A stretch of 64,000 nucleotides of DNA from Escherichia phage P1. The DNA is taken from sequence record MH445380.1; one strand, given 5' to 3'. Positions 1 to 55,808 of the stretch are shown piece by piece. Position 1 is the first letter of the stretch. Each line of letters begins with the position of its first letter. The notes below the pieces were generated by a model that saw nothing but the letters and a program-made list of their open reading frames with translations, was not told where the DNA came from and did not search any database. The position numbers and the translations under genes were made by a program.

Positions 1-726
1 GCCGCGCGCGCTATGTTGCGTCGGTCCGGGGCCGATGTTCTGGAAACCACTCTTCTGGAAAAGTCTCTTTCTCATCTCCTTATGCTGGAGAACGCCAGGG
101 ATACGTGTATTCGCCTAGTGCAGGAAATGCGCGATCAGCAAAAAGACGATGATGAAGGTACTCCGCCTGAATACCGTATCGCGAGCATGCTAAACAGCTG
201 TTCCGCGCAGATAAGCAGCCTGATCAACACCATTTACAGCATCCGGAATAACTATCGAAAAGAAAGCCGGGAGGCGGAAAAGCACGCTTTATCTATGGGG
301 CAAGCTGGCATTGTTAAGCTGGCATACGAACGAAAGCGTGAAAATAACTGGTCAGTGCTGGAAGCGGCTGAATTCATCGAGGCGCATGGAGGAAAAGTGC
401 CTCCCCTGATGCTGGAGCAAATCAAAGCCGATCTGCGTGCTCCTAAGACCAATACCGATGATGAGGAAAACCAAACAGCATCTGGCGCTCCATCACTTGA
501 AGATCTGGATAAAATCGCGCGAGAACGGGCCGCCAGCCGCCGCGCTGATGCCGCATTGTGGATTGAGCATCGTAGAGAAGAAATTGCCGATATCGTCGAT
601 ACAGGTGGTTATGGTGATGTCGATGCGGAAGGCATATCAAACGAAGCATGGCTTGAACAGGATCTGGACGAAGACGAGGAGGAAGACGAAGAAGTTACCC
701 GCAAACTGTACGGGGATGATGATTAA
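1..726 (+). CDS. pacA: Terminase small subunit PacA, C-terminal part (5-prime end lies outside window)
   Basis: Frame open from nt 1 (track ORF 13..726); acidic C-terminus; stop overlaps pacB ATG; pacA-pacB-c1 synteny as in phage P1. Confidence 0.7.
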
Positions 727-5613: not shown

Positions 5614-5651
5614 GGGGTCGTCTCAGAAAACGGAAAATAAAGCACGCTAAG
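5614..5651. repeat. Tn21-type 38-bp terminal inverted repeat (tnp end)
   Basis: GGGGTCGTCTCAGAAAACGGAAAATAAAGCACGCTAAG. Confidence 0.9.
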
Positions 5652-8613
5652 CCGGTTGCAGAGGCCGTAGCGGCCTGAACTTCCCCGCGCCGATCTTGGC
5701 GCTGCTGCGCCATAGGTAATCACCGGTCAGGTTGATGTGCTCCCAGCCGAGTGGCGACAGGTACTGCAATAGCGAGTCATCGACGGCATGACCATTGCCG
5801 CGCAACGCATGCGCCGCACGCTCCAGGTAGACCGTGTTCCACAGCACGATGGCCGCCGTCACCAGGTTGAGGCCGCTGGCCCGGTAGCGCTGCTGCTCGA
5901 AACTGCGGTCACGGATTTCACCAAGGCGGTTGAAGAACACGGCACGGGCCAGCGCATTGCGCGCCTCGCCCTTGTTCAGCCCGGCATGCACGCGGCGGCG
6001 TAGCTCGACGCTTTGCAGCCAGTCGAGGATGAACAGCGTGCGCTCGATGCGGCCCAACTCGCGCAGCGCGACGGCCAAGCCGTTCTGGCGCGGGTAGCTG
6101 CCGAGTTTCCTGAGCATCAGCGAGGCCGTCACCGTGCCCTGCTTGATCGAGGTGGCCAGCCGCAGGATTTCGTCCCAATGGGCGCGGACGTGCTTGATGT
6201 TGAGCGTGCCGCCGATCATCGGCTTGAGCGCGTCATAGGCGGCATCGCCCTTCGGGATGTAGAGCTTGGTGTCGCCCAGGTCGCGGATGCGCGGCGCGAA
6301 GCGGAAGCCCAAGAGGTGCATCAGGGCGAAGACGTGATCGGTGAAGCCCGCCGTGTCGGTGTAGTGCTCCTCGATCCGCAGGTCGGATTCGTGGTACAGC
6401 AGGCCGTCGAGCACGTAGGTTGAGTCGCGCAGGCCGACATTGACCACCTTGGTGTGGAATGGCGCGTATTGGTCGGAGATGTGGGTGTAGAAAGTCCGTC
6501 CTGGGCTGCTGCCATATTTTGGGTTGATGTGCCCCGTGCTCTTTGCCTTGCTAGCGGTTCGGAAATTCTGTCCGTCCGATGATGATGTGGTGCCATCGCC
6601 CCAGTGCCCGGCAAAGGGATGCCGAAACTGAGCGTTGACCAGTTCAGCCAACGCTGTCGAGTACGTTTCGTCGCGGGTATGCCAGGCTTGCAGCCAAGCG
6701 AGCTTCGCGTAGGTCGTGCCGGGGCAGGACTCGGCCATCTTGGTCAGGCCCAGGTTGATCGCGTCGGCCAGGATCGTGGTCAACAACAGGTTCTTGTCCT
6801 TGGCCAGATCGCCCGATTTCAAGTGCGTGAAGTGCCGGGTGAAGCCCGTCCACTCATCGACTTCGAGCAGCAGTTCGGTGATCTTGACGTGCGGCAGGAC
6901 CATGGCTGTCTGGTCTATCAGCGCCTGCGCGGTGTCGGGCACCGCCGCATCCAGCGGCGTGATCTTCAAGCCCGACTCGGTGATGATGGCATCCGGCAGG
7001 TCGTTGGCTGCCGCCATGCGGTTGACGGTGGCAAGTTGTGCTTCCAGCAGCGTCAGCCGCTCATGCAGATATTGTTCGCAGTCGGTGGCCACGGCCAGCG
7101 GCAATTCGCTGGACTGCTTGAGGCTGGTGAACTTCTCGGGCGGTACCAGGTAGTCCTCGAAGTCCTTGAACTGGCGTGAACCCTGCACCCAGATGTCGCC
7201 CGAGCGCAGGGAGTTCTTCAACTCGGACAGCGCGCACAGTTCGTAGTAGCGCCGGTCGATGCCGGCGTCGGTCATCACCAGTTTCTGCCAGCGCGGCTTG
7301 ATGAAGCCGGTCGGTGCATCGGCTGGCAGCTTGCGGGCGTTGTCGGTGTTCATGCCGCGCAGCACCTCAATGGCATCAAGCACGTTTTTGGCGGCGGGCG
7401 CGGCCCGCAGCTTGAGCACGGCAAGGAATTCCGGTGCATAGCGGCGCAGGGTGGCGTAGCTCTCGCCGATGCGATGCAGGAAATCGAAGTCATCGGGTTG
7501 CGCGAGCTTCTGCGCCTCGGTGACGCTCTCGGCAAAGGAATCCCAGGACATGACGGCCTCGATGGCGGCAAACGCATCGCGGCCTGATTGCTTGGCGTCG
7601 ATCAGCGCCTGACCGATGCGCCCGTACAGACGTACCTTGGCGTTGATGGCCTTGCCTGACGCCTGGAACTGCTGCTGATGCTTATTCTTGGCAGCGTTAA
7701 ACAGCTTACCCAGGATGCGGTCGTGCAGGTCGATGATTTCGTCGGTGACGGTGGCCATGCCCTCGGTGGCCAGCGCCACGAGAGTGGCGTAGCGCCGTTG
7801 CGGCTCGAATTTGGCCAGGTCGGCGGGTGTCATCTGGCCGCCCTCGCGGGCAATCTTGAGCAGGCGGTTCTGGTGAACCAGCCGCTCGATGCCGGTAGGC
7901 AGATCGAGTGCCTGCCATGCCTTGAGGCGTTCGATGTGTTCCAGCATATGCCGCGAATTTGGCTTGGCCGGAGACTGGCGCAACCAAGCCAACCAGGTCG
8001 TCTTGCCGTTGTCCCGGCGCTTGAGCAGATCGTCGAGGCGGCGGCGATGCGCGTCCGCCAGTGGTTCGGCCAAGGCGTCGTAGATGCGCCGGTTAGCACG
8101 GGTGATCGCCTCGGCACTCGCCCGCTCGACGGCGTTGAGGGCGGGCAGAATGACCGACTGCCGCCGCAGGTGCCCGATCAAGGCGCTGGCCAGCACGATG
8201 CCTTTGTCGGTTTGCATCGCCAGCTCGGTCAGCATCTGGACGGCCTGCCGGTAATGGCTCATGGTGAAGGGCCGGAAACCGAACACGGTTTGCAGCTCGC
8301 TCAGGTGCTCGCGCCGGGTCTGCTCCCGCTGGCCGTACTCGTTCCAGCTTTCGACGCCGACCTTGAGCTGGTCGGCGACCAGCTTCAACAAGGGCGGGAA
8401 CGGTAGTTCATCGACGCCCAGGATGACGCCGGGAAAGCGCAGGTAACAGAGCTGCACCGCGAAGCCCAGCCGATTGGCTGGCCCGCGCCGCTGTCGGATG
8501 ATCGAGAGGTCGGTATCGTTGAATGTGTAATGTCGGATCAGGTCGTCCTTGGAGTCCGGCAACGCCAGCAGGCTTTCCCGCTCGGCGGCGGACAGGATGG
8601 AACGACGTGGCAT
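5647..8613 (-). CDS. tnpA: Tn21-type transposase TnpA (988 aa)
   Basis: 988-aa Tn3-family transposase ORF ending inside the IR; followed by tnpR. Confidence 0.95.
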
Positions 8614-8615
8614 AT

Positions 8616-9176
8616 TTACTGATCCGTTCTCAAGTATTGATACAGGGTTTCGCGACTGATTCCGAATTCACGAGCAAGCTTGGTCTTTTGCTCGCCAGCC
8701 TCGACACGTTGGCGCAGTTCGGCAATACGCTCAGACGACAGGGATTTCTTCCTGCCACGGTAAGCCCCGCGTTGCTTGGCGAGCGCAATACCCTCGCGCT
8801 GACGCTCGCGGATCAGGGCGCGCTCGAACTCGGCGAACGCGCCCATCACCGAGAGCATCAGGTTCGCCATCGGAGAGTCTTCGCCAGTAAAACTGAGGTG
8901 TTCCTTGACGAATTCGATATGCACGCCGCGTTGTGTCAGCGTTTGCACGATCCGGCGCAAATCATCGAGATTGCGCGCCAGGCGATCCATGCTATGCACC
9001 ACCACGGTGTCGCCGGTGCGGGCGAAGCTTATCAGCGCTTCCAGTTGCGGACGCTTGACATCCTTGCCGGATGCCTTGTCGCTAAAAGCGCGATCAACCT
9101 TGACGCCTTCCAGTTGCCGTTCCGGGTTCTGGTCGAAGGTGCTGACCCTGATATACCCAATGCGCTGTCCAGTCAT
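8616..9176 (-). CDS. tnpR: Tn21-type resolvase TnpR (186 aa)
   Basis: Serine recombinase [19 protein letters not shown]...; 186 aa. Confidence 0.95.
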
Positions 9177-9295
9177 GGAATTCCCTGCAAAATGTCAGGG
9201 AAGACTCTATGACCTTCAACGAGATATGTCAATAAATTCAAAATTCAATCCTATCCTGACGCAATTTACACATGGCATCTGACATCAGGTTAGGG
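9177..9295. promoter_or_regulatory. Tn21 res region (partial), truncated by IS26
   Basis: Sequence upstream of tnpR is identical to the second copy at 23432..23548 and ends abruptly at the IS26 IR. Confidence 0.6.
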
Positions 9296-10115
9296 GGCAC
9301 TGTTGCAAAGTTAGCGATGAGGCAGCCTTTTGTCTTATTCAAAGGCCTTACATTTCAAAAACTCTGCTTACCAGGCGCATTTCGCCCAGGGGATCACCAT
9401 AATAAAATGCTGAGGCCTGGCCTTTGCGTAGTGCACGCATCACCTCAATACCTTTGATGGTGGCGTAAGCCGTCTTCATGGATTTAAATCCCAGCGTGGC
9501 GCCGATTATCCGTTTCAGTTTGCCATGATCGCATTCAATCACGTTGTTCCGGTACTTAATCTGTCGGTGTTCAACGTCAGACGGGCACCGGCCTTCGCGT
9601 TTGAGCAGAGCAAGCGCGCGACCATAGGCGGGCGCTTTATCCGTGTTGATGAATCGCGGGATCTGCCACTTCTTCACGTTGTTGAGGATTTTACCCAGAA
9701 ACCGGTATGCAGCTTTGCTGTTACGACGGGAGGAGAGATAAAAATCGACAGTGCGGCCCCGGCTGTCGACGGCCCGGTACAGATACGCCCAGCGGCCATT
9801 GACCTTCACGTAGGTTTCATCCATGTGCCACGGGCAAAGATCGGAAGGGTTACGCCAGTACCAGCGCAGCCGTTTTTCCATTTCAGGCGCATAACGCTGA
9901 ACCCAGCGGTAAATCGTGGAGTGATCGACATTCACTCCGCGTTCAGCCAGCATCTCCTGCAGCTCACGGTAACTGATGCCGTATTTGCAGTACCAGCGTA
10001 CGGCCCACAGAATGATGTCACGCTGAAAATGCCGGCCTTTGAATGGGTTCATGTGCAGCTCCATCAGCAAAAGGGGATGATAAGTTTATCACCACCGACT
10101 ATTTGCAACAGTGCC
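9296..10115 (-). mobile_element. IS26 (820 bp), copy 1
   Basis: 14-bp IRs GGCACTGTTGCAAA at 9296 and its complement ending 10115; Tnp26 CDS 9348..10052 on minus strand; no 8-bp flanking duplication. Confidence 0.97.
9348..10052 (-). CDS. tnp26: IS26 transposase Tnp26 (234 aa)
   Basis: [42 protein letters not shown]...; track ORF is extended 6 codons upstream. Confidence 0.95.
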   Translation of the reverse strand: MNPFKGRHFQRDIILWAVRWYCKYGISYRELQEMLAERGVNVDHSTIYRWVQRYAPEMEKRLRWYWRNPSDLCPWHMDETYVKVNGRWAYLYRAVDSRGRTVDFYLSSRRNSKAAYRFLGKILNNVKKWQIPRFINTDKAPAYGRALALLKREGRCPSDVEHRQIKYRNNVIECDHGKLKRIIGATLGFKSMKTAYATIKGIEVMRALRKGQASAFYYGDPLGEMRLVSRVFEM

Positions 10116-10649: not shown

Positions 10650-11522
<873 letters not shown>

Positions 11523-11692: not shown

Positions 11693-12851
<1,159 letters not shown>

Positions 12852-13111
12852 CATTTATGAATGTTCCTGTTATGGCTTATGTTCAAGAAAGCATTGCCCC
12901 TGAAATGATGGGCAAGGTGTTTTCCCTTTTGATGACCGCCATGACTCTTTCTATGCCGATAGGCTTACTTGTTGCAGGTCCGGTTGTTGAGGTTATAGGT
13001 GTTAATACATGGTTTTTCTGGTCTGGTGTTGCGTTGATAGTAAACGCTGTTCTCTGCCGCATTCTGACACGACGCTATGACAAAGTAACAATGAAACCGC
13101 AAGTGGACTGA
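12852..13111 (+). pseudogene. mef(B): MFS efflux gene 3-prime remnant (260 bp), consistent with the mef(B) remnant reported beside sul3
   Basis: C-terminal MFS transmembrane segment ...PIGLLVAGPVVEVIGVNTWFFWSGVALIVNAVL...; begins at the IS26 boundary. Confidence 0.55.
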
Positions 13112-14871: not shown

Positions 14872-15663
14872 ATGAGCAAGATTTTTGGAATCGTAAATAT
14901 AACCACCGATAGTTTTTCCGATGGAGGACTTTATTTAGATACAGATAAGGCAATTGAGCATGCTCTGCATTTGGTTGAAGATGGAGCAGATGTGATTGAT
15001 TTGGGAGCCGCTTCCAGTAATCCTGATACAACTGAAGTGGGCGTTGTGGAAGAAATCAAAAGACTCAAACCTGTCATTAAGGCTTTAAAAGAAAAAGGCA
15101 TTTCTATTTCTGTTGATACATTTAAACCTGAGGTTCAGAGTTTTTGCATAGAACAAAAGGTTGATTTTATTAATGATATTCAAGGTTTTCCTTATCCTGA
15201 GATTTATTCAGGCTTGGCAAAGTCAGATTGCAAACTTGTGTTGATGCACTCCGTTCAGCGAATTGGTGCAGCTACTAAAGTTGAAACGAATCCGGAAGAG
15301 GTTTTTACTTCCATGATGGAATTTTTTAAAGAAAGAATTGCTGCTTTAGTTGAGGCTGGTGTAAAGCGTGAACGAATTATTCTTGATCCGGGTATGGGCT
15401 TCTTTTTAGGCTCTAATCCAGAAACATCTATTCTTGTTTTGAAGCGTTTCCCTGAAATTCAAGAAGCTTTTAATTTGCAAGTAATGATTGCAGTGTCACG
15501 GAAATCATTCTTAGGTAAAATAACTGGAACCGATGTGAAATCTCGTTTAGCACCAACTCTTGCAGCAGAAATGTATGCATACAAAAAAGGTGCAGATTAT
15601 CTCCGCACCCATGATGTTAAGTCTTTATCAGATGCCTTGAAAATATCCAAAGCCCTAGGTTAG
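14872..15663 (+). CDS. sul3: Sulfonamide-resistant dihydropteroate synthase Sul3 (263 aa)
   Basis: 263-aa DHPS-like ORF in the qacH-IS-sul3 context typical of sul3 integrons. Confidence 0.88.
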   Translation: MSKIFGIVNITTDSFSDGGLYLDTDKAIEHALHLVEDGADVIDLGAASSNPDTTEVGVVEEIKRLKPVIKALKEKGISISVDTFKPEVQSFCIEQKVDFINDIQGFPYPEIYSGLAKSDCKLVLMHSVQRIGAATKVETNPEEVFTSMMEFFKERIAALVEAGVKRERIILDPGMGFFLGSNPETSILVLKRFPEIQEAFNLQVMIAVSRKSFLGKITGTDVKSRLAPTLAAEMYAYKKGADYLRTHDVKSLSDALKISKALG

Positions 15664-17344: not shown

Positions 17345-18136
17345 TTATTTGCCGACTACCTTGGTGATCTCGCCTTTCACGTAGTGAACAAATTCTTCCA
17401 ACTGATCTGCGCGGGAGGCCAAGCGATCTTCTTCTTGTCCAAGATAAGCCTGTCTAGCTTCAAGTATGACGGGCTGATACTGGGCCGGCAGGCGCTCCAT
17501 TGCCCAGTCGGCAGCGACATCCTTCGGCGCGATTTTGCCGGTTACTGCGCTGTACCAAATGCGGGACAACGTAAGCACTACATTTCGCTCATCGCCAGCC
17601 CAGTCGGGCGGCGAGTTCCATAGCGTTAAGGTTTCATTTAGCGCCTCAAATAGATCCTGTTCAGGAACCGGATCAAAGAGTTCCTCCGCCGCTGGACCTA
17701 CCAAGGCAACGCTATGTTCTCTTGCTTTTGTCAGCAAGATAGCCAGATCAATGTCGATCGTGGCTGGCTCGAAGATACCTGCAAGAATGTCATTGCGCTG
17801 CCATTCTCCAAATTGCAGTTCGCGCTTAGCTGGATAACGCCACGGAATGATGTCGTCGTGCACAACAATGGTGACTTCTACAGCGCGGAGAATCTCGCTC
17901 TCTCCAGGGGAAGCCGAAGTTTCCAAAAGGTCGTTGATCAAAGCTCGCCGCGTTGTTTCATCAAGCCTTACGGTCACCGTAACCAGCAAATCAATATCAC
18001 TGTGTGGCTTCAGGCCGCCATCCACTGCGGAGCCGTACAAATGTACGGCCAGCAACGTCGGTTCGAGATGGCGCTCGATGACGCCAACTACCTCTGATAG
18101 TTGAGTCGATACTTCGGCGATCACCGCTTCCCTCAT
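17345..18136 (-). CDS. aadA1: Aminoglycoside 3''-adenylyltransferase AadA1 (263 aa)
   Basis: ORF MREAVIAEVSTQLSEVVGVIERHLEPTLLAVHLYGSAVDGGLKPHSDIDLLVTV... Confidence 0.95.
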   Translation of the reverse strand: MREAVIAEVSTQLSEVVGVIERHLEPTLLAVHLYGSAVDGGLKPHSDIDLLVTVTVRLDETTRRALINDLLETSASPGESEILRAVEVTIVVHDDIIPWRYPAKRELQFGEWQRNDILAGIFEPATIDIDLAILLTKAREHSVALVGPAAEELFDPVPEQDLFEALNETLTLWNSPPDWAGDERNVVLTLSRIWYSAVTGKIAPKDVAADWAMERLPAQYQPVILEARQAYLGQEEDRLASRADQLEEFVHYVKGEITKVVGK

Positions 18137-18228: not shown

Positions 18229-19488
18229 TCAACGATTGGGATTTGATGTACTTTCCGCACTTTGTAGCGCGACCACATCATGCTCCCCCTGGCCGCGAGA
18301 GCCCTTCACTCGGGAAACACAAGACAGACCGAGCACGACTGTTGCAAGGGTCAAACAGTACACGACAACCGGCCAAGCCGTGTTGCGCGGCAACAGCGAA
18401 ATGATCAACGTTCCGATGCTTCCTAGCAGTACACCGCCCAAGCAGAAGTAGACTGCCGTGACCGTTCCAGCAACATGGTCGAATCCTCGAAGAGCGCCAT
18501 TGGGCGCCACAGATACCGCTGTGGCGACACCAATACCCACTAGCCACATTGGAGCAATAAAGCCTAACACGGACTGCAAAGCCCATATTTCGGTGATGGC
18601 AAGCAATACTGCTCCAGCTATCAGGCATCCCATTCCCATTCGCAAGACACTTGGGCTGCCCCACTTGGGTATCACACGCCCCATAAAACGAGCCGTAAAC
18701 ACCATGGCAATTGCCACTGTGGCGAACAGCAGGCTGAAGCCAAGCTGAGACACACCTTGCCTGCCCATCATTAGTCCGGGCGCAATGGAGAAAAAGACGA
18801 AGAAGCTACCCATTCCAGCGGCGTAACACAACGTGTACAACCAGAAGTTCAGGCACTTAACGGGGAGTAGCAGCTGCGACCATTGCAAGCCCGCAACTCG
18901 TTGCACCCGGGTTTCAGGCCAGAATCGCCACGCTGCTGCAGATGCAGCGATCATGCCCAAACCTAGAAACGCAAAGATAGCCCGCCACCCAAGCCACATG
19001 TCGACGAGCGCTCCGAGCAATGGGCCTACCGCCGGGACCATGGCCAGCATGGATCCGAGTATGCCGTAAATGACATTACTTTCCTCGCGACCTGCGTAAA
19101 TGTCACGTACTGTTGCAAATGTGGAAACAAGGCACGCCGAGGCACCACAAGCCTGAAGAATCCGAAGCCCCAGAAAGACTTCAGCCGATGACGTAAGAGC
19201 GAGGCCCATTGACGCCACAACGTAGGCGAGGCCACCTCCCAGTAGAACGGGGCGGCGCCCCAGTCGGTCCGATAGCGGTCCAAACAAGAGCTGACCGGCA
19301 CCAATCATGACCAAGTACGTTGTCAGCGTAAGCTGAATTGTGCTCGCTGTCGTACCAAGCGCGTTTGGCATAAACGGCACTGCTGGCAAGTACATGTCCA
19401 TGCCGAGTGATGCCAATAAATCGAACGGTGATAACAACAACACCGTGGCGGCAAGGGAGTACCGCCAACTAAAGTTTTTTGAGCTCAC
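18229..19488 (-). CDS. cmlA1: Chloramphenicol efflux MFS transporter CmlA1 (419 aa, GTG start inferred)
   Basis: 12-TM MFS ORF; track ORF extends 16 codons upstream of the VSSKNFSWRY start; long 5-prime leader before the aadA2 attC. Confidence 0.9.
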   Translation of the reverse strand: MSSKNFSWRYSLAATVLLLSPFDLLASLGMDMYLPAVPFMPNALGTTASTIQLTLTTYLVMIGAGQLLFGPLSDRLGRRPVLLGGGLAYVVASMGLALTSSAEVFLGLRILQACGASACLVSTFATVRDIYAGREESNVIYGILGSMLAMVPAVGPLLGALVDMWLGWRAIFAFLGLGMIAASAAAWRFWPETRVQRVAGLQWSQLLLPVKCLNFWLYTLCYAAGMGSFFVFFSIAPGLMMGRQGVSQLGFSLLFATVAIAMVFTARFMGRVIPKWGSPSVLRMGMGCLIAGAVLLAITEIWALQSVLGFIAPMWLVGIGVATAVSVAPNGALRGFDHVAGTVTAVYFCLGGVLLGSIGTLIISLLPRNTAWPVVVYCLTLATVVLGLSCVSRVKGSRGQGEHDVVALQSAESTSNPNR

Positions 19489-19688
19489 GAAACCATCTCC
19501 TTGAACAAAGGATTTGGCGGCGCTCCCGTAGAGCAAAAGGATTCATGAGAACGCCGCAACAACCGAAAAATGAAGGTTGCTGCGGCTTACTTGTCTGCGT
19601 TCTTGGAAGTGCTCATCTGCTGACTATCTCATGATTGAATTTGAATCGTAACAACTTTCAAGCAACTCTGCAAGGAGCCTTATTGTGC

Positions 19689-19749: not shown

Positions 19750-20541
19750 TCATTTACCAACTGACTTGATGATCTCGCCTTTCACAAAGCGAATAAATTC
19801 TTCCAAGTGATCTGCGCGTGAGGCCAAGTGATCTTCTTTTTGTCCCAGATAAGCTTGCTTAGCTTCAAGTAAGACGGGCTGATACTGGGCAGGTAGGCGT
19901 TTTATTGCCCAGTCGGCAGCGACATCCTTCGGCGCGATTTTGCCGGTTATTGCGCTGTACCAAATGCGGGACAACGTAAGCACTACATTTCGCTCATCGC
20001 CGGCCCAGTCGGGCTGCGAGTTCCATAGCTTCAAGGTTTCCCTCAGCGCCTCGAATAGATCCTGTTCAGGAACCGGGTCAAAGAATTCCTCCGCTGCCGG
20101 ACCTACCAAGGCAACGCTATGTTCTCTTGCTTTTGTAAGCAGGATAGCTAGATCAATGTCGATCATGGCTGGCTCGAAGATACCCGCAAGAATGTCATTG
20201 CGCTGCCATTCTCCAAATTGCAGCTCGCGCTTAGCCGGATAACGCCACGGGATGATGTCGTCATGCACGACAAGGGTGACTTCTATAGCGCGGAGCGTCT
20301 CGCTCTCGCCAGGGAAAGCCGAAGCCTCCATAAGGTCATTGAGCAATGCTCGCCGCGTCGTTTCATCAAGCTTTACGGCCACAGTAACCAACAAATCAAT
20401 ATCGCTGTATGGCTTCAGGCCGCCATCCACTGCGGAGCCGTACAAATGCACGGCCAGCAACGTTGATTCCAGATGGCGCTCAATGACGCTTAGCACCTCT
20501 GATAGTTGGTTCGAAATTTCGATGGTCACCGCTACCCTCAT
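19750..20541 (-). CDS. aadA2: Aminoglycoside 3''-adenylyltransferase AadA2
   Basis: ORF MRVAVTIEISNQLSEVLSVIERHLESTLLAVHLYGSAVDGGLKPYSDIDLLVTV...; paralog of aadA1. Confidence 0.9.
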   Translation of the reverse strand: MRVAVTIEISNQLSEVLSVIERHLESTLLAVHLYGSAVDGGLKPYSDIDLLVTVAVKLDETTRRALLNDLMEASAFPGESETLRAIEVTLVVHDDIIPWRYPAKRELQFGEWQRNDILAGIFEPAMIDIDLAILLTKAREHSVALVGPAAEEFFDPVPEQDLFEALRETLKLWNSQPDWAGDERNVVLTLSRIWYSAITGKIAPKDVAADWAIKRLPAQYQPVLLEAKQAYLGQKEDHLASRADHLEEFIRFVKGEIIKSVGK

Positions 20542-20598
20542 GATGTCTAACACCAGAATTAAGCCGCGCCGCGAAGCGGCGTCGGCTTGAATGACTTG

Positions 20599-21302: not shown

Positions 21303-22145
21303 CTATGACGTTTGCCCCTTAATCGCCTGGATAATCCTCGGCCAGTCTTCATGATGCAACTCATGTCCCGTGCCTTCGAGTGTCAGCATTTTTGAACCAC
21401 GAATCGCATCTTTCAGTGCCAACCCATGCACATAAGGAAGTACAGGATCCTCCGTGCCGTGAATGATCAAAGTTGGTACAGCTATCTCATTTAATCTCCC
21501 GAGCCATCTCTCGCCACCACCTAAAGTAGTGTGGTTGAATGTTGTCAGGATATTCGGAGTGCGATCAAAATTTAACTCAGCGATGTTTTGTATCTTCTCA
21601 GCGTCAAAAGCATGCGCAGTACCTGAGTTGATTCGCCACGCTCCGACCTGATACGCGACGACAGCATCTCTATCAGACCAATCCAGCGATTCCGCCCGTT
21701 GGTGATACTCAATGATGGCAGGATCAAAAGCGGGCATATCCGGATCTGCATCTGCAAGCCGTTCTGAAGCAATCAGCGTCAAGCTCTTCACACGTTTCGG
21801 ATACTTGAGAGCTACAAGCTGGGAAAGAAATCCCCCCAAAGACATGCCGACTAAATGAGCAGCTTCCAGACCATAACCATCAATGACGCGAACCACATCA
21901 TCTGCTAATTCTTCAACGGAATATGGAGCCTGACCTGGCTCATAGCTTGTTGATTTCCCGGTATCACGGTGGTCGTACCGGATCACATAGCGACCCATTT
22001 TGGCAAGTTGGGAACAAAACTCATCAGGCCACCACACCGCAGACGACATTGCCCCCATGATCAGAATAATGGGTTCATGGGCCGGGTCGCCGAATGATTC
22101 GGTATAGAGTGAAATCGCTTTATCAACAACTACCTTTTCTTTCAT
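21303..22145 (-). CDS. estX: Alpha/beta-hydrolase esterase cassette EstX (280 aa)
   Basis: GMSLGG nucleophile elbow; ATG at 22145 (MKEKVVVDK); track ORF extends into attI1. Confidence 0.8.
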
Positions 22146-22311
22146 ACTTAAATTGCCTTCGAGTTCTACGTACAACTTTGTTTTAGGGCGACTGCCCTGC
22201 TGCGTAACATCGTTGCTGCTCCATAACATCAAACATCGACCCACGGCGTAACGCGCTTGCTGCTTGGATGCTCGAGGCATAGACTGTACAAAAAAACAGT
22301 CATAACAAGCC
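22146..22311. other. attI1 integron recombination region (first integron)
   Basis: Sequence between the intI1 start and the first cassette; mirrored at 25124..25269 in the second integron. Confidence 0.6.
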
Positions 22312-23040
22312 ATGAAAACCGCCACTGCGCCGTTACCACCGCTGCGTTCGGTCAAGGTTCTGGACCAGTTGCGTGAGCGCATACGCTACTTGCATTACAG
22401 TTTACGAACCGAACAGGCTTATGTCCACTGGGTTCGTGCCTTCATCCGTTTCCACGGTGTGCGTCACCCGGCAACCTTGGGCAGCAGCGAAGTCGAGGCA
22501 TTTCTGTCCTGGCTGGCGAACGAGCGCAAGGTTTCGGTCTCCACGCATCGTCAGGCATTGGCGGCCTTGCTGTTCTTCTACGGCAAGGTGCTGTGCACGG
22601 ATCTGCCCTGGCTTCAGGAGATCGGAAGACCTCGGCCGTCGCGGCGCTTGCCGGTGGTGCTGACCCCGGATGAAGTGGTTCGCATCCTCGGTTTTCTGGA
22701 AGGCGAGCATCGTTTGTTCGCCCAGCTTCTGTATGGAACGGGCATGCGGATCAGTGAGGGTTTGCAACTGCGGGTCAAGGATCTGGATTTCGATCACGGC
22801 ACGATCATCGTGCGGGAGGGCAAGGGCTCCAAGGATCGGGCCTTGATGTTACCCGAGAGCTTGGCACCCAGCCTGCGCGAGCAGCTGTCGCGTGCTGTCG
22901 CGTGCACGGGCATGGTGGCTGAAGGACCAGGCCGAGGGCCGCAGCGGCGTTGCGCTTCCCGACGCCCTTGAGCGGAAGTATCCGCGCGCCGGGCATTCCT
23001 GGCCGTGGTTCTGGGTTTTTGCGCAGCACACGCATTCGAC
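22312..23040 (+). pseudogene. intI1: intI1 pseudogene: 10-bp tandem duplication frameshift plus 3-prime truncation
   Basis: Identical to the intact intI1 (24110..25123) up to codon ~196; then ctgtcgcgtg duplicated at ~22885..22904; frame lost; junction with tnpR sequence at 23040/23041. Confidence 0.85.
22399..22427 (-). promoter_or_regulatory. Integron Pc promoter (TGGACA-17 bp-TAAACT)
   Basis: Hexamers read on the cassette (minus) strand inside the intI1 5-prime region. Confidence 0.6.
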
Positions 23041-23431
23041 CAATACCCTCGCGCTGACGCTCGCGGATCAGGGCGCGCTCGAACTCGGCGAACGCGCCCA
23101 TCACCGAGAGCATCAGGTTCGCCATCGGAGAGTCTTCGCCAGTAAAACTGAGGTGTTCCTTGACGAATTCGATATGCACGCCGCGTTGTGTCAGCGTTTG
23201 CACGATCCGGCGCAAATCATCGAGATTGCGCGCCAGGCGATCCATGCTATGCACCACCACGGTGTCGCCGGTGCGGGCGAAGCTTATCAGCGCTTCCAGT
23301 TGCGGACGCTTGACATCCTTGCCGGATGCCTTGTCGCTAAAAGCGCGATCAACCTTGACGCCTTCCAGTTGCCGTTCCGGGTTCTGGTCGAAGGTGCTGA
23401 CCCTGATATACCCAATGCGCTGTCCAGTCAT
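23041..23431 (-). pseudogene. tnpR: Tn21-type tnpR, 5-prime ~130 codons only (3-prime end deleted at junction with intI1)
   Basis: Identical to 8786..9176; the 208-aa track ORF is a read-through into intI1 antisense. Confidence 0.85.
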
Positions 23432-23556
23432 GGAATTCCCTGCAAAATGTCAGGGAAGACTCTATGACCTTCAACGAGATATGTCAATAAATTCAAAATT
23501 CAATCCTATCCTGACGCAATTTACACATGGCATCTGACATCAGGTTAGGGTATGCC
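23432..23556. promoter_or_regulatory. Tn21 res region (second copy)
   Basis: Direct repeat of 9177..9295, here continuing into tnpM. Confidence 0.6.
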
Positions 23557-30432: not shown

Positions 30433-31252
30433 GGCACTGTTGCAAAGTTAGCGATGAGGCAGCCTTTTGTCTTATTCAAAGGCCTTACATTTCAAAAACT
30501 CTGCTTACCAGGCGCATTTCGCCCAGGGGATCACCATAATAAAATGCTGAGGCCTGGCCTTTGCGTAGTGCACGCATCACCTCAATACCTTTGATGGTGG
30601 CGTAAGCCGTCTTCATGGATTTAAATCCCAGCGTGGCGCCGATTATCCGTTTCAGTTTGCCATGATCGCATTCAATCACGTTGTTCCGGTACTTAATCTG
30701 TCGGTGTTCAACGTCAGACGGGCACCGGCCTTCGCGTTTGAGCAGAGCAAGCGCGCGACCATAGGCGGGCGCTTTATCCGTGTTGATGAATCGCGGGATC
30801 TGCCACTTCTTCACGTTGTTGAGGATTTTACCCAGAAACCGGTATGCAGCTTTGCTGTTACGACGGGAGGAGAGATAAAAATCGACAGTGCGGCCCCGGC
30901 TGTCGACGGCCCGGTACAGATACGCCCAGCGGCCATTGACCTTCACGTAGGTTTCATCCATGTGCCACGGGCAAAGATCGGAAGGGTTACGCCAGTACCA
31001 GCGCAGCCGTTTTTCCATTTCAGGCGCATAACGCTGAACCCAGCGGTAAATCGTGGAGTGATCGACATTCACTCCGCGTTCAGCCAGCATCTCCTGCAGC
31101 TCACGGTAACTGATGCCGTATTTGCAGTACCAGCGTACGGCCCACAGAATGATGTCACGCTGAAAATGCCGGCCTTTGAATGGGTTCATGTGCAGCTCCA
31201 TCAGCAAAAGGGGATGATAAGTTTATCACCACCGACTATTTGCAACAGTGCC
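30433..31252 (-). mobile_element. IS26 (820 bp), copy 3, same orientation as copy 1
   Basis: IRs at 30433..30446 and 31239..31252; Tnp26 CDS 30485..31189 minus strand. Confidence 0.97.
30485..31189 (-). CDS. tnp26: IS26 transposase Tnp26
   Basis: Identical to other copies. Confidence 0.95.
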   Translation of the reverse strand: MNPFKGRHFQRDIILWAVRWYCKYGISYRELQEMLAERGVNVDHSTIYRWVQRYAPEMEKRLRWYWRNPSDLCPWHMDETYVKVNGRWAYLYRAVDSRGRTVDFYLSSRRNSKAAYRFLGKILNNVKKWQIPRFINTDKAPAYGRALALLKREGRCPSDVEHRQIKYRNNVIECDHGKLKRIIGATLGFKSMKTAYATIKGIEVMRALRKGQASAFYYGDPLGEMRLVSRVFEM

Positions 31253-35746: not shown

Positions 35747-38713
35747 ATGCCGCGTCGCTTGATCCTCTCGGCCACGGAGCGGGACACCCTGCTTGCGCTG
35801 CCGGAAAGCCAGGATGACCTGATCCGCTACTACACCTTCAACGACTCCGACCTGTCGCTGATCCGCCAGCGACGCGGCGACGCCAACCGCCTCGGCTTCG
35901 CCGTGCAGCTCTGCCTGCTGCGCTACCCCGGTTACGCGCTGGGAACCGACAGCGAGCTGCCCGAGCCGGTCATCCTGTGGGTGGCGAAGCAAGTCCAGGC
36001 CGAGCCGGCGAGCTGGGCAAAGTACGGCGAGCGCGACGTGACCCGTCGCGAGCATGCCCAGGAACTGCGCACCTACCTGCAACTGGCCCCGTTCGGCCTG
36101 TCCGACTTCCGCGCCCTGGTGCGCGAGCTAACCGAGCTGGCCCAGCAGACCGACAAAGGCTTGCTGCTGGCCGGTCAGGCCCTGGAGAGCCTACGGCAGA
36201 AACGACGCATCCTGCCGGCGCTGAGCGTGATTGACCGGGCCTGCTCGGAAGCCATTGCGCGAGCCAATCGGCGGGTCTACCGCGCCCTGGTCGAACCACT
36301 CACGGACTCGCATCGGGCCAAGCTGGACGAGCTGTTGAAGCTCAAGGCCGGCAGCAGCATCACCTGGTTGACCTGGCTGCGCCAGGCACCGCTGAAACCC
36401 AACTCTCGGCACATGCTGGAACACATCGAGCGGCTGAAGACATTTCAGTTGGTGGACTTGCCCGAAGGCCTGGGCCGGCACATCCACCAGAACCGCCTGC
36501 TCAAGCTGGCCCGCGAGGGTGGGCAGATGACGCCCAAAGACCTCGGTAAGTTCGAGCCGCAGCGCCGCTACGCGACCCTGGCCGCCGTGGTGCTGGAGAG
36601 CACCGCGACCGTGATCGATGAGCTGGTCGATCTGCATGACCGCATCCTGGTCAAGCTGTTCAGCGGCGCGAAGCACAAGCATCAGCAGCAGTTCCAGAAG
36701 CAGGGCAAGGCGATCAACGACAAGGTGCGCCTGTACTCCAGGATCGGCCAGGCGCTGCTGGAAGCGAAGGAAAGCGGCAGCGACCCCTATGCCGCCATCG
36801 AGGCGGTGATTCCCTGGGACGAGTTCACCGAGAGCGTCAGCGAGGCCGAGCTGCTGGCCCGGCCGGAAGGCTTCGACCACCTGCACCTGGTCGGCGAGAA
36901 CTTCGCCACCCTGCGCCGTTACACGCCGGCCTTGCTGGAGGTGCTGGAACTGCGCGCCGCGCCGGCCGCGCAAGGCGTGCTGGCAGCCGTGCAGACCCTG
37001 CGTGAGATGAACGCCGACAACCTGCGCAAGGTGCCGGCCGATGCACCCACGGCCTTCATCAAGCCGCGCTGGAAGCCGCTGGTGATCACCCCGGAAGGCC
37101 TCGACCGGAAATTCTACGAAATCTGCGCCCTGTCCGAGCTGAAGAACGCCCTGCGCTCCGGCGACATCTGGGTCAAGGGCTCGCGGCAGTTCCGCGACTT
37201 CGACGACTACCTGCTGCCGGCCGAGAAGTTCGCCGCACTCAAGCGCGAGCAGGCCCTGCCCCTGGCGATCAACCCGAACAGCGACCAGTACCTGGAAGAG
37301 CGTTTGCAGCTGCTGGACGAGCAGTTGGCCACCGTCACCCGCCTGGCCAAGGACAACGAGCTGCCCGATGCCATCCTCACCGAGTCAGGGCTGAAAATCA
37401 CCCCGCTGGATGCGGCGGTGCCGGATCGGGCGCAGGCGCTGATCGACCAAACCAGCCAGTTACTGCCGCGCATCAAGATCACCGAATTGCTGATGGACGT
37501 GGACGACTGGACGGGCTTCAGCCGCCACTTCACCCACTTGAAGGACGGGGCCGAGGCCAAAGACAGGACGTTGCTGCTGTCCGCAATCCTCGGTGATGCG
37601 ATCAACCTCGGGCTGACCAAGATGGCCGAGTCGAGCCCCGGCCTGACCTACGCCAAGCTGTCCTGGCTGCAAGCCTGGCACATCCGCGACGAAACCTATT
37701 CGGCGGCCTTGGCCGAGCTGGTCAACCACCAGTATCGCCACGCCTTTGCCGCCCACTGGGGCGACGGCACGACCTCATCCTCCGATGGCCAGCGCTTCCG
37801 CGCGGGTGGCCGGGGCGAGAGCACCGGGCACGTCAACCCGAAGTACGGTAGCGAGCCGGGACGGCTGTTCTATACCCACATCTCCGACCAATACGCGCCA
37901 TTCCACACCAAGGTGGTCAATGTCGGCCTGCGCGACTCAACCTACGTGCTCGACGGCCTGCTGTACCACGAGTCCGACCTGCGGATCGAGGAGCACTACA
38001 CCGACACGGCCGGCTTCACCGATCACGTCTTTGCCCTGATGCACCTGCTAGGCTTCCGCTTCGCGCCGCGCATCCGCGACCTCGGCGAAACCAAGCTGTA
38101 CGTGCCGCAGGGCGTGCAAGCCTACCCGACGTTGCGCCCGCTGATCGGCGGCACCCTGAACATCAAGCACGTGCGTGCCCACTGGGACGACATCCTGCGC
38201 CTGGCCAGCTCGATCAAGCAGGGCACCGTCACCGCCTCGCTGATGCTGCGCAAGCTCGGCAGCTACCCGCGCCAGAACGGACTGGCCGTGGCCCTGCGCG
38301 AGCTGGGCCGGATCGAGCGCACGCTGTTCATCCTGGACTGGCTGCAAAGTGTTGAACTGCGCCGCCGCGTGCATGCCGGCCTGAACAAAGGTGAGGCGCG
38401 CAACTCGCTGGCCAGGGCGGTGTTCTTCAACCGCCTTGGGGAAATCAGGGATCGGAGCTTCGAGCAGCAGCGCTACCGGGCCAGCGGCCTCAACCTGGTG
38501 ACGGCGGCTATCGTGCTGTGGAACACGGTGTACCTGGAACGCGCCACCCAGGGGTTGGTCGAGGCCGGCAAGCCGGTGGACGGCGAGCTGCTGCAATTCC
38601 TGTCGCCGCTGGGCTGGGAGCACATCAACCTAACCGGCGATTACGTCTGGCGGCAGAGCCGCAGACTGGAAGACGGGAAGTTTCGGCCCTTACGGATGCC
38701 CGGAAAACCTTAG
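35747..38713 (+). CDS. tnpA: Tn1721-type transposase TnpA (988 aa)
   Basis: 988-aa Tn3-family transposase, diverged from the Tn21 TnpA at 5647..8613. Confidence 0.95.
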
Positions 38714-52864: not shown

Positions 52865-52881
52865 ATTGCTCTAATTAATTT
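52865..52881. promoter_or_regulatory. C1 operator-like motif in lyz-ssb divergent intergenic region
   Basis: attgctctaattaattt. Confidence 0.5.
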
Positions 52882-52900: not shown

Positions 52901-53389
52901 GTGGCACAACGCGGTGTAAACAAAGTCATCCTGATTGGTACCCTGGGGCAAGACCCGGAGATCAGGTATATACCAAATGGCGGAGCGGTCGGAAGACTCA
53001 GCATCGCAACGAATGAATCATGGCGCGACAAGCAAACGGGCCAACAGAAAGAGCAAACAGAATGGCATAAAGTAGTTTTGTTCGGAAAACTTGCTGAAAT
53101 TGCGAGTGAATATTTACGAAAAGGTTCTCAGGTCTACATCGAAGGGAAACTTAAAACCCGTAAGTGGACAGATGACGCCGGTGTAGAACGTTACACGACG
53201 GAAATTATCGTCAGCCAGGGCGGCACCATGCAAATGATCGGCGCTCGCCGTGACGATTCACAGTCCTCAAATGGCTGGGGGCAATCAAACCAACCTCAAA
53301 ACCACCAGCAATACAGTGGTGGCGGTAAACCTCAGAGCAACGCCAATAACGAACCTCCAATGGACTTTGACGACGATATTCCGTTTTGA
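52901..53389 (+). CDS. ssb: Single-stranded DNA-binding protein Ssb (162 aa)
   Basis: OB-fold N-terminus ([23 protein letters not shown]...), Gly/Gln-rich linker, acidic tail DFDDDIPF. Confidence 0.92.
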
Positions 53390-53586
53390 ATGTGTAAAAA
53401 ACGACTGAAAGAAAAGCGGTGGTCCAGACGCCGACAAAAGCACGAACTCGCTCAAAAACGCCAAAGTTGGCAATGGCACGCGCTTTTAACGAATAGAACA
53501 CCCCGAGATATTGCTTTCGCTGGTGGGAAAACATTCCTAACCAACCTGAAGGCGCAATACATCAGTTTTTAAGCAGAGAAAAGACT

Positions 53587-54381
53587 ATGACAGCACAAAA
53601 TACTAAAACCATTCAATACCGCCTACGTAATGGCCAGAGTGTCGAAGTGACCATCAATAACGATGGAGTGCCAGGCGAAAAGGTTTCTATCTCTGATCTG
53701 GCTATCGAAAAAACCATCATGTGCCACCTTGGCTTTACTGAAGAAGTGAGCAAAAAGCATGGTGTAGCTATCTGGCGCACAATGGATACTGGAATGCGCA
53801 GATTCATTACTGCTCGTACCCCTGGTATGACCATGATGGACCTCATGCAGATTGCGCCGCTGTTTGAGTGTGAACCTCTGGATGTATTCAGTAATCCAGT
53901 TATCTGCCAGCAGTTATATGGTGAGATGAAACTCGCGGTTACCCCCATCGTGCTGCATGAAGGATCGCTTGCTGGCGTATGGAAAGTAGAGCGAATTTCA
54001 AGCTACATGCCCTTCCACGTCCATGTCAACGGCGTAATCACAGGTGAAAATCAACCTGTTTCAGTTACAAAGTCAGACCTCAAGCGTGCAATTCTTGAAG
54101 CAAGTTGTCGAGTTATCGGCCTGGGCAAACAGTCTTATGTTTGCTTCCCCGCAGGCCCAGAAGGCCAGGCTGAAATACTGGCGATGGATGCCGATCTGCT
54201 CTGGCAAATAGAGTTTATGATAGGGAAAAGCATCATCCGAGCTGAAGAACTCGATCAGTACATTACCTGCACAATGACGGATGAGGTAAAAAGTGTGGCT
54301 ATAGCCAAAGCCCGGAACCTGTGTCGTGCTGCATTAACAGAACTGCGAGAAAACACCACGGAAGAGGTGGAAAGTGATTAA
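53587..54381 (+). CDS. Hypothetical P1-backbone protein (264 aa)
   Basis: ORF with Shine-Dalgarno-like GAGAAAAG upstream; 8-nt overlap with next gene. Confidence 0.5.
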   Translation: MTAQNTKTIQYRLRNGQSVEVTINNDGVPGEKVSISDLAIEKTIMCHLGFTEEVSKKHGVAIWRTMDTGMRRFITARTPGMTMMDLMQIAPLFECEPLDVFSNPVICQQLYGEMKLAVTPIVLHEGSLAGVWKVERISSYMPFHVHVNGVITGENQPVSVTKSDLKRAILEASCRVIGLGKQSYVCFPAGPEGQAEILAMDADLLWQIEFMIGKSIIRAEELDQYITCTMTDEVKSVAIAKARNLCRAALTELRENTTEEVESD

Positions 54382-55468
54382 TCGTATACAGAATGAATCT
54401 GCCTGGTTAGCACTGATAGAACAGTATAAAGACAATTGGGAACTGGCAGCGAAAGAGTTGCTTGATATTGAGTTAACACCTCATCAAGCAAAAATTATTA
54501 ACGCGATAAAGAACACCGGAGCCAAAGTCACTGCCACCACACCACATGGTATTGGGGAAACCTCTATTGTGGCAGTGATTAGCATCCTGCAAACAATACT
54601 GTATTCGTGTTCCCGTACAGTGGTTGTTTCTCCTGCTATTAACGATAGTCGAAAAACAATAATTGACTATATGTTCCGTTATTGGGAGCGAGTTACCCAA
54701 AAACACCCTTTTCTTGGCAATCATTTCAGAATGCACCCTGACAAAGGGTTGGTGCATATCAGTGAAACATGGGGATGCGTCTATATAACCTATTGTCTGA
54801 ATAACGAAGTGTCTCTGGCTGGTTTTACTGGACCGCACGATCTTTTCATCGTTATTAACTCGGCGGAAATCAGCGATCGCGCTCATGCAGTGATAACTGG
54901 CAATTTAACCAATTATGACTCGCGCCTGCTGTTGCTGTCGAAACCATCGGAACGCGAGAAAGGGTACTTTTATGATTCGCATCACCGGTTGGCCCATAGT
55001 AAAAACAATCCTGCTGGTTTTTTCACGGCGATAACTCTAAACACAGAGGATTCGCCTCTCGTTTCTGAAGCATATCTTGAATTCAAAGCCAAAGAGTTTG
55101 GTGGGCGCAATAGCGATGAATATCGCCGATTGATCTTGGGGAAATTTCCCGGGATTCGGGAGTTGATGGAAAAGTCATCTGTTCCCCGTAATATGCACTT
55201 CACAATGACTGACGGTAGTAAATGGGTAGTGCCTACGATCGTGATCGCCAAACACCATGCGAAACATCACGCTCAAAAACACAACTCCAGCACATTAGAC
55301 TGGCTGAAGGCCTATACAATACCGTTATTCTCGGCAAACCATAACGCTATAGCTGAATGGGCTAAACAAATCCCCTGGCAGGATGTGGCTGAAGAGGCAT
55401 TTGTCGAAAAACCTCCGAGAGATTTGCACGAGCACTGTTGGCTGACATCAGAAAAGAGCTTCTCGTGA
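54374..55468 (+). CDS. PacB-like paralog: terminase-large-subunit N-domain homolog with degenerate Walker motifs (364 aa)
   Basis: Aligns to PacB: TPHGIGETSIV vs [11 protein letters not shown]; LFIVINSAEISD vs [13 protein letters not shown]; [23 protein letters not shown] vs [22 protein letters not shown]. Confidence 0.6.
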   Translation: MINRIQNESAWLALIEQYKDNWELAAKELLDIELTPHQAKIINAIKNTGAKVTATTPHGIGETSIVAVISILQTILYSCSRTVVVSPAINDSRKTIIDYMFRYWERVTQKHPFLGNHFRMHPDKGLVHISETWGCVYITYCLNNEVSLAGFTGPHDLFIVINSAEISDRAHAVITGNLTNYDSRLLLLSKPSEREKGYFYDSHHRLAHSKNNPAGFFTAITLNTEDSPLVSEAYLEFKAKEFGGRNSDEYRRLILGKFPGIRELMEKSSVPRNMHFTMTDGSKWVVPTIVIAKHHAKHHAQKHNSSTLDWLKAYTIPLFSANHNAIAEWAKQIPWQDVAEEAFVEKPPRDLHEHCWLTSEKSFS

Positions 55469-55472
55469 GGTA

Positions 55473-55498
55473 AAAATCCCGCCGATTGGCGGGATTTC
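55473..55498. terminator. Bidirectional rho-independent terminator
   Basis: aaaatcccgcc-gatt-ggcgggatttc hairpin between convergent genes. Confidence 0.7.
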
Positions 55499-55499
55499 T

Positions 55500-55808
55500 T
55501 TAATATATGATCTGGTCTATATGATCACCAAAATCATCGTCGTCGTCCTCATCGCCACCATCTACTGCTGGCCAATCAACAAACCAGCCAGCGTAAAGAT
55601 ACAGCGTTCGGAGAACATCACTTGCGGGAGCATCAAGGGTGTTAACGAATCCCATATAGCTATTGGGATTTGCTCCAGCTATGGCTTCAGCGATCATGTC
55701 CTCGGTAATGTCACCGGAGATAATGCTTAAACGCCCGGAAACTTCTTCATTATCATCAAATTCGATAATGGCATCTCCGCCTAATGGCGCTGCGATTTTA
55801 ATCTGCAT
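55500..55808 (-). CDS. Small acidic protein downstream of ddrB (102 aa, iddB position)
   Basis: Last gene of the darA operon; acidic C-terminal DGGDEDDDDDFGD. Confidence 0.4.
   Translation of the reverse strand: MQIKIAAPLGGDAIIEFDDNEEVSGRLSIISGDITEDMIAEAIAGANPNSYMGFVNTLDAPASDVLRTLYLYAGWFVDWPAVDGGDEDDDDDFGDHIDQIIY

Follow-up and report, generated by a model that had tools for sequence, protein, structure and literature searches.

This analysis concerns a gene in a 64,000-nucleotide stretch of DNA from Escherichia phage P1 (sequence record MH445380.1), which is referred to below as the window and whose numbering is used throughout. The gene, here called terL*, encodes a 364-residue protein (TerL*) related to PacB, the large terminase subunit (TerL) of the phage. 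A sequence-only reading had described it as a catalytically inactive, terminase-like paralog encoded between ssb and the dar operon. The open reading frame was present at exactly the predicted position, on the plus strand, in the list of open reading frames, and the gene order (ssb, isaA-like, terL*, hxr, ddrB) agreed with the setting that had been described. The genes and features of the locus, together with pacB, were as follows.

52865-52881, plus strand: C1 repressor operator of the Ossb/Op21 type, with 1 mismatch to the consensus, upstream of ssb.
52901-53389, plus strand: ssb, the first gene of a putative operon.
53587-54381, plus strand: isaA-like gene (264 residues; open reading frame list, phrog_2326), the upstream partner of terL*.
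54364-54370, plus strand: Shine-Dalgarno-like GAGGTGG, read from the sequence, 3 nt 5′ of the terL* GTG.
54374-55468, plus strand: terL*, open reading frame of a very probable pseudo-terminase, 364 residues, GTG start.
54374-55159, plus strand: TerL-type ATPase-fold domain of TerL* (residues 1-262), catalytically degenerate.
54539-54562, plus strand: Walker A remnant TPHGIGET (residues 56-63), with Lys62 replaced by Glu and Gly57 by Pro.
54842-54868, plus strand: Walker B remnant LFIVINSAE (residues 157-165), with Asp161 replaced by Ile and the catalytic Glu162 by Asn.
55181-55453, plus strand: SD domain (residues ~270-360), in place of the PacB nuclease domain.
54382-55471, plus strand: terL* cassette, 1,090 bp relative to the empty-site allele, from the isaA stop to the terminator (BLASTN, P1 alignment).
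55474-55497, no strand: strong hairpin terminator, 10-bp stem with 6 G-C pairs, common to terL* and hxr.
55500-55808, minus strand: hxr, convergent with terL*.
55798-58785, minus strand: ddrB.
726-2210, plus strand: pacB, the active large terminase (494 residues) and the closest catalytically intact relative of terL*.

BLASTP aligned residues 11-285 of TerL* with residues 11-289 of PacB at 96 identical positions of 284 (34%, E = 2e-50), so that the resemblance to the N-terminal ATPase domain of PacB, already seen by the sequence-only reading, is far beyond chance; the alignment covered the block that the reading had quoted (23 letters of TerL* against 21 of PacB). The terminase large subunit family PHROG 2 also matched TerL* (E = 1.2e-7), and the full-length match was phrog_5902, a family without annotation (E = 5e-184). 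A sequence search of the PDB with the whole protein gave no match. The AlphaFold2 model of TerL*, built from 64 sequences, had a predicted local distance difference test score above 90 over residues 10-260, and its top Foldseek matches in the PDB were the TerL ATPase domains of Sf6 gp2, HK97, P74-26, and T4 gp17 (E = 3e-9 to 1e-6). Thus, the N-terminal domain has the fold of the TerL-type additional strand catalytic glutamate (ASCE) P-loop ATPases. With the PacB/TerL family it shares, besides this fold, the Q motif, the P-loop glycines, the LLLS.P strand, the GYFYDSHH block, and a lid ending in G.FP. In every lineage, two stretches remained conserved with PacB, namely the first ~30 residues (W..L...Y..(D/N)W..A) and the last third of the ATPase domain (LLLS.P and a further 15 letters).

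The catalytic residues were not kept. The Walker A segment read TPHGIGETS in TerL* and SGHGTGKSD in PacB (Lys to Glu at position 62), and the Walker B segment read LFIVINSAE in TerL* and LYIIDEASG in PacB (Asp to Ile at 161, Glu to Asn at 162). When the columns were counted in an alignment of TerL*, PacB, and 60 active homologues, the Walker A position 62 was Lys in 60 of 60 active homologues (Glu in TerL*), the Walker B position 161 was Asp in 57 and Glu in 3 of the 60 (Ile in TerL*), and the catalytic position 162 was Glu in all 60 (Asn in TerL*). Three other columns were invariant in the active homologues and altered in TerL*: 57 (Gly, 60/60; Pro in TerL*), 152 (His, 60/60; Thr), and 190 (Asn, 60/60; Lys). 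These counts bear out the loss of the Walker A lysine and of the Walker B acidic pair that had been read from the letters. An intact motif elsewhere in the protein, which would have told against an inactive enzyme, was looked for, and no alternative GK[ST] or hhhhDE motif was found. PacB itself was intact (GTGKS, IIDEAS, and the nuclease half); nothing in TerL* aligned with residues 290-494 of PacB, the nuclease region, beyond TerL* residue ~285.

TerL* therefore lacked four testable features of a TerL: the Walker A lysine, the Walker B aspartate with the catalytic glutamate, the nuclease domain, and the context of a packaging module. In the window, 52 kb separate terL* from pacA-pacB; the gene follows ssb and isaA, and in related loci a small-terminase gene never adjoined it. 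To judge from the sequence, TerL* would be able neither to hydrolyze ATP in the canonical way nor to cut DNA. Sequence and predicted fold support the description as a catalytically inactive, terminase-like protein, as does the fact that all of the relatives found share this degeneracy, but the description had overlooked that the C-terminal nuclease domain is absent and that another domain, SD, stands in its place. TerL* almost certainly is a pseudoenzyme derived from TerL: homology to an active family was found together with lost catalytic residues, and so was evolutionary retention, in the form of purifying selection and conserved orthologues (see below).

SD is a separate C-terminal domain of ~95 residues, predicted as a β-hairpin with helices and unrelated to the PacB nuclease. 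A phmmer search with the last 103 residues (262-364) against 1.84 billion representative proteins returned 151 clusters (E up to 1e-3), mostly of proteins of ~100 residues, and a profile search returned at least 848 clusters. The C-terminus of phrog_17928 matched the same TerL* residues, 262-364 (E = 8.7e-15). The signature was M.DGS.W.VP..IA..RA..YA...SL.EDT.PLF...I.DWA.NNM.W.DV, with R/H variation at the RA position; the conserved columns, in the numbering of the 103-residue query, were D19, W23, P26, I30, A31, A35, T54, P56, F58, W68, W74, and W95. SD matched a stand-alone 98-residue protein whose gene comes right behind that of a DnaB-type helicase in the P1-like Cronobacter phage JK004, and the C-terminus of 471-residue proteins of Xanthomonas phages, in which SD is fused to a DUF1351-like coiled-coil protein and the neighbors are recombinase, exonuclease, and SSB genes. 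Stand-alone SD genes of lambdoid prophages either followed the replication genes, within the nin region, or preceded int, within the exo-xis region; both are classic early accessory regions. No Pfam family was found for SD; its profile had a single marginal match in the PDB (3ic3, E = 0.086) and the JK004 protein a weak match to DUF5076, and neither was judged significant. SD showed neither a DNA-binding motif nor a known fold, and the window held no second copy. SD thus defines a large unannotated family, mostly of stand-alone early proteins of temperate phages. Its fusion partners were the DUF1351-like coiled coil, a domain with the motif IWEK..Y.NEG.NG to which no function is assigned, and the dead TerL ATPase domain (family loci: window 55181-55453, L004:4010-4306, L005:1885-3300, and L006-L011).

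Intact open reading frames of the terL* type were found at 43-53% identity across three phage lineages. P0393 (366 residues), on contigs of ~92-96 kb from E. coli, Shigella, and Salmonella, was 49% identical to TerL* over the full length and 43% in the ATPase-like domain; the PacB of these elements was 94% identical to that of phage D6. P0002/P0409, from a phage that is not P1-like, was 53% identical to TerL*. The P0392 protein of Klebsiella michiganensis (366 residues) had the domains in the opposite order, with SD at the N-terminus followed by a degenerate PacB-like ATPase domain that stopped at the G.FP motif and had no nuclease domain. Each carried its own degenerate motifs: GIGRP/IVDSA in P0002, GIGHKS/IVMDAA in P0393, and GSGTGTT/IVPKAT in P0392. 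Across lineages, the replacements were E, R, H, and T at position 62; I, V, M, and P at 161; and N, D, and K at 162. The loss of the same positions with differing residues indicates that catalysis was lost long ago and that constraint was then relaxed at those sites while the fold otherwise remained constrained. The existence of fusions in both orders, TerL-N*-SD and SD-TerL-N*, is strong evidence that the two domains form a functional unit.

In a neighbor-joining tree, the three TerL-N*-SD proteins formed one clade (100%) and the PacB proteins another (100%). The permuted P0392 joined the TerL* side weakly, with 28% support, and the tree fits either a single or a double origin of the two domain orders. 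Between P1-like and D6-like elements, identity was 43% in the ATPase-like domain of TerL* and 59% in the ATPase domain of PacB. TerL* and PacB were 33-37% identical in all combinations of lineages; because TerL* was no closer to the PacB of its own lineage, there was no sign of co-evolution. The term paralog therefore holds insofar as TerL* is homologous to PacB, but terL* did not arise by recent local duplication of pacB. Its clade is an old one, sister to that of PacB and evolving faster.

The terL* allele occurred in 120 plasmids of PLSDB, compared with 336 that matched the isaA-like gene (over a third), and the match spanned at least 80% of terL* in 119 of the 120. The hosts were Escherichia, Salmonella, Klebsiella, and Shigella. 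Among 5,426 complete E. coli genomes, terL* was present in 100 (~2%), always at full length and plasmid-borne except in two places. As the sequence-only reading had proposed to check, the gene was thus sought in other P1-like elements; it was found in many plasmids and was absent from laboratory P1. The most divergent terL* pair (93.9% DNA identity) had 31.7 synonymous and 36.3 nonsynonymous differences. The ratio of nonsynonymous to synonymous substitution rates (dN/dS) was 0.30 for terL*, 0.35 for its ATPase-like part, and 0.16 for SD; it was 0.14 for the neighboring isaA. By a rough binomial estimate, the synonymous excess was ~5 standard deviations from neutral. On this pattern of substitutions, terL* is kept by selection and is not decaying, and its distribution marks it as an accessory, horizontally mobile gene. 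In the record of phage vB_EcoM-813R1 (ON470617.2, L003:2969-4063), terL* was shifted out of frame by 1 nt close to its 3′ end and was annotated as a coding sequence of 356 residues; either the sequence is in error or the protein is naturally shortened by its last ~10 residues.

The bounds of the terL* cassette were set by comparing the window, by BLASTN, with p12579_1, a plasmid whose site is empty, as well as with isaB-type plasmids and laboratory P1. DNA homology between the window and P1 (AF234172) ended three codons into terL* and resumed at hxr. In laboratory P1, the slot between isaA and hxr was filled by IS1 and an unrelated gene, isaB, which is why that strain lacks terL*; IsaB and IS1 share the slot with terL* but not its sequence. 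Four states of the slot were observed in P1-like plasmids: empty (p12579_1), isaB alone, IS1 with isaB, and terL*. In p12579_1, the isaA TAA was followed directly by the terminator, and the empty-site allele read GCG at the position of the terL* GTG. Laboratory P1 and the isaB-type plasmids retained the start of terL* (GTG ATT AAT), followed by a stop after five codons (window 54374-54382; L002:2975-2995; L021:4270-4282). This retained start is an apparent scar and suggests that the isaB-type state replaced the terL*-type state. The proposal that isaB of P1 is a C-terminal remnant of terL* truncated by IS1 was rejected, since the DNA alignment showed no homology to isaB past the first three terL* codons. 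P1 IsaB and hxr had no PADLOC match (E up to 0.01). The isaA-IS1-isaB region is a recognized variable region of P1-like elements, named RD-2 (PMC6906374) or region 2 (PMC9603915), and the TerL* protein is not mentioned in the literature on it. The ssb-isaA spacer (53390-53586), 197 bp long in both the window and laboratory P1, was a second variable slot, which held a DUF2829-domain gene in some P1-like plasmids (L012:813-1490, L021:2813-3490, L030:1-205).

A pattern search for C1 operators gave 8 matches in the window, compared with 0.17 expected by chance, and an equivalent operator upstream of ssb is annotated in P1 AF234172. No plus-strand terminator was predicted from ssb to the end of terL*. 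The terL* GTG lay inside the 3′ end of isaA, with an overlap of 8 nt, and this overlap together with the Shine-Dalgarno-like site suggests translational coupling of the two genes. From the operator, the lack of an intervening terminator, and the overlap with isaA, we infer that ssb, isaA, and terL* form a predicted early, C1-repressed transcript.

The D6-like elements carried the order cre, dUTPase, Tad2-like, isaA-like, terL*, doc/phd, humD, and hot. Their IsaA homologue (46% identical) immediately preceded terL*, again with an overlap, here of 14 nt (L017:5208-6014). Since an IsaA homologue precedes terL* at this different locus also, IsaA and TerL* may form a two-gene module, although IsaA also occurs alone. 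IsaA had no match in Pfam, NCBIfam, PADLOC, or the PDB, and the idea that it is a relative of the small terminase subunit PacA was rejected for lack of similarity. The carrier that is not P1-like had a λ-P-type replication gene, a Terminase_2 small subunit, and a TerL 24% identical to PacB; its terL* followed the replication genes. A 202-residue gene upstream of terL* in this phage was considered as an isaA homologue and rejected because it is not homologous, so that no IsaA was found there. Klebsiella P0392 had genes for AbiH, a RecA-dependent nuclease, GmrSD_N, and dUTPase/Tad2-like proteins as neighbors, and in the window the dar anti-restriction operon was near terL*. Genes of the Tad2-like (anti-Thoeris) family were observed near terL* homologues in both D6-like and Klebsiella elements, one of them fused to dUTPase (L023:336-911, L023:8551-9201, L016:15418-16332), and the regions that contain them may be anti-defense islands of phage-plasmids.

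With catalysis lost and the gene retained, we infer that TerL* acts by binding rather than by catalysis. The account that we favor, at a confidence a little short of calling it probable, is that this binding or mimicry serves in conflict between phage and host or between phages. TerL* would be made early, from the predicted C1-repressed ssb-isaA-terL* transcript, and would act stoichiometrically: by mimicking the structure of the terminase ATPase domain, it would tie up a factor that recognizes this domain, and SD would supply a second contact. The likeliest target would be a host immune sensor of large terminases of the Avs1-3 type, and next to it the terminase partners of a rival phage. As a decoy, TerL* would occupy or mis-assemble signal transduction ATPases with numerous domains (STAND) of the Avs1-3 kind, or other systems triggered by TerL, before the real terminase appears; that it is specifically such an anti-defense decoy is doubtful. 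A target outside the packaging machine of its own phage is favored by the movement of terL* among phages with unrelated terminases, by its presence in accessory regions rich in anti-defense genes, and by its faster evolution than PacB.

Several points weigh against this account. The sensor Avs3 touches both the ATPase and the nuclease active sites of the terminase, and a protein without either might go unbound. A protein resembling TerL, if made early, might just as well activate these sensors instead of blocking them. The evidence from the neighborhoods is weak because these regions are general accessory hot spots, and the stand-alone SD genes beside replication and recombination genes would fit a role in DNA metabolism at least as well. 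The early timing of expression is predicted from sequence alone. In addition, Pfam, NCBIfam, and PADLOC (E up to 0.01) had no match for the whole of TerL*.

Among the other explanations, a packaging modulator or poison subunit deserves attention but is unlikely. TerL* would have kept the PacB surfaces that meet PacA, the portal, or other PacB subunits, and would either restrain the terminase of P1 itself until heads are ready or sabotage the packaging of competing P1/D6-type phages. PacB is indeed the closest active relative, the two regions conserved in all lineages are shared with it, dead subunits of ring ATPases are commonly regulators or poisons, and most carriers are P1-like or D6-like elements with a PacA/PacB terminase. 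However, the carrier that is not P1-like has a TerL only 24% identical to PacB and a Terminase_2-type small subunit, the 33-37% identity of TerL* and PacB in all combinations gives no sign of co-evolution, and laboratory P1, which lacks terL*, packages normally, so that the gene is dispensable; these three observations weaken in particular a role in tuning the phage's own terminase, one of the ideas of the sequence-only reading (which had suggested a regulator or a decoy), and self-poisoning would require an unexplained immunity. Slightly less probable is a co-opted factor of DNA metabolism, in which the dead ATPase domain would serve as a scaffold for DNA or protein and SD would provide a link to SSB, a DnaB-type helicase, or a recombinase, early and together with IsaA. 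The position of terL* downstream of ssb fits this proposal, as do the SD genes after DnaB/P replication genes in lambdoid prophages and after the DnaB-type helicase in JK004, the Xanthomonas fusions beside recombinase, exonuclease, and SSB genes, and the λ-P-like replication gene that terL* follows in the phage that is not P1-like; but SD has no detected DNA-binding motif or known fold, and the nin and exo-xis regions are also classic places where accessory genes with no relation to one another accumulate.

The two remaining explanations are both very improbable. A functionless relic, that is, a pacB duplicate in decay, would account for the missing catalytic residues and nuclease domain, for the absence of terL* from many P1-like genomes including laboratory P1, and for the frameshift near its 3′ end in one phage record. 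It is already largely refuted by a dN/dS of ~0.3 rather than ~1, calculated over the 68 substitutions that separate the most divergent pair, and by the intact open reading frames at 43-53% identity in three phage lineages, the confident AlphaFold2 fold, the fusion to SD in both orders, and the precise cassette boundaries with the ribosome-binding site kept. An active nucleoside triphosphatase with non-canonical residues, such as the shifted Lys in GIGHKS or the single Asp of the D6-like allele, finds some support in the retention of His58, Gly59, Gly61, and the Gln38 motif in the window, D6-like, and metagenome-assembled genome alleles, and of Gln38, Gly59, and Gly61 in the permuted Klebsiella protein, where position 58 is Ser; in P0393, moreover, the next position holds a Lys, and a single Asp is present at 162 in both P0002 and P0393. 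Against it, Glu stands in for the Lys in the window allele, in which neither 161 nor 162 is acidic, and the substitutions differ among lineages, as they do when constraint is relaxed rather than when a new catalytic solution arises.

TerL* can be set beside known systems. It differs from PacB in that terL* has no adjoining pacA or portal gene, is apparently expressed early under C1 repression rather than from a late promoter, and is accessory rather than essential. The gp16 protein of phi29 is a packaging-type ASCE ATPase that lacks a nuclease domain, has intact Walker motifs, and drives packaging; TerL* likewise has no nuclease, but it has lost the Walker motifs and carries an unrelated extra domain. 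The Ppi proteins of Staphylococcus aureus pathogenicity islands (SaPI) and the Rpp proteins of phage-inducible chromosomal islands (PICI) are satellite proteins that bind the terminase small subunit of the helper phage and are not homologues of TerL. If TerL* is a packaging modulator, it may share their mode of action, interference with terminase assembly, but it is carried by phages themselves. Catalytically dead paralogues that regulate or mimic active relatives include the inactive subunits of clamp loaders and the prozymes of trypanosomatids (PMC10211241). In these, as in TerL*, an enzyme fold remains under purifying selection after the loss of catalysis, with a function presumably exerted through binding; such paralogues are fixed beside the active relative, whereas terL* is horizontally mobile. 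Neither a terminase-derived pseudoenzyme nor the SD domain was described in the literature that we searched.

In the wider window, positions 53400-55900 were 100% identical to phage record MH422554.1 (only this span was compared). The P1-like backbone of the window also contained a multidrug-resistance region (~5647-39000) that was not present in MH422554.1, so that the two records are not colinear. Its features were as follows.

5647-8613, minus strand, and 35747-38713, plus strand: Tn3-family transposase genes, 79% identical to each other.
8786-9295 and 23041-23550; 9295-9600, 12547-12852, and 30433-30737: 100%-identical repeats of 305-510 bp.
10650-11510: blaTEM.
14872-15663: sul3.
17345-18136: aadA1.
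18229-19536: cmlA.
19750-20553: second aadA.
21303-22382: estX.

In the databases, terL* is labeled as a terminase large subunit (MH422554.1), as a DNA packaging protein, or elsewhere as a hypothetical protein. By descent, TerL* belongs to the TerL superfamily, yet it should not be annotated as a terminase. Terminase and packaging labels for this gene are misleading: genomes can appear to have two terminases, and phage classification based on terminases can be confused. P1 is among the best-studied phages, yet its laboratory strain lacks terL*. A selected, mobile terminase pseudoenzyme, fused in both orders to SD, suggests that the terminase fold is put to a use other than packaging, one so far unexplored. 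If TerL* acts in immune evasion or in competition between phages, it would offer a testable entry point and the first functional link for the SD family. If it is a decoy, it would be the first anti-defense decoy of the pseudoenzyme type derived from a core virion-assembly protein, and the stand-alone SD proteins would be a large unrecognized anti-defense family.

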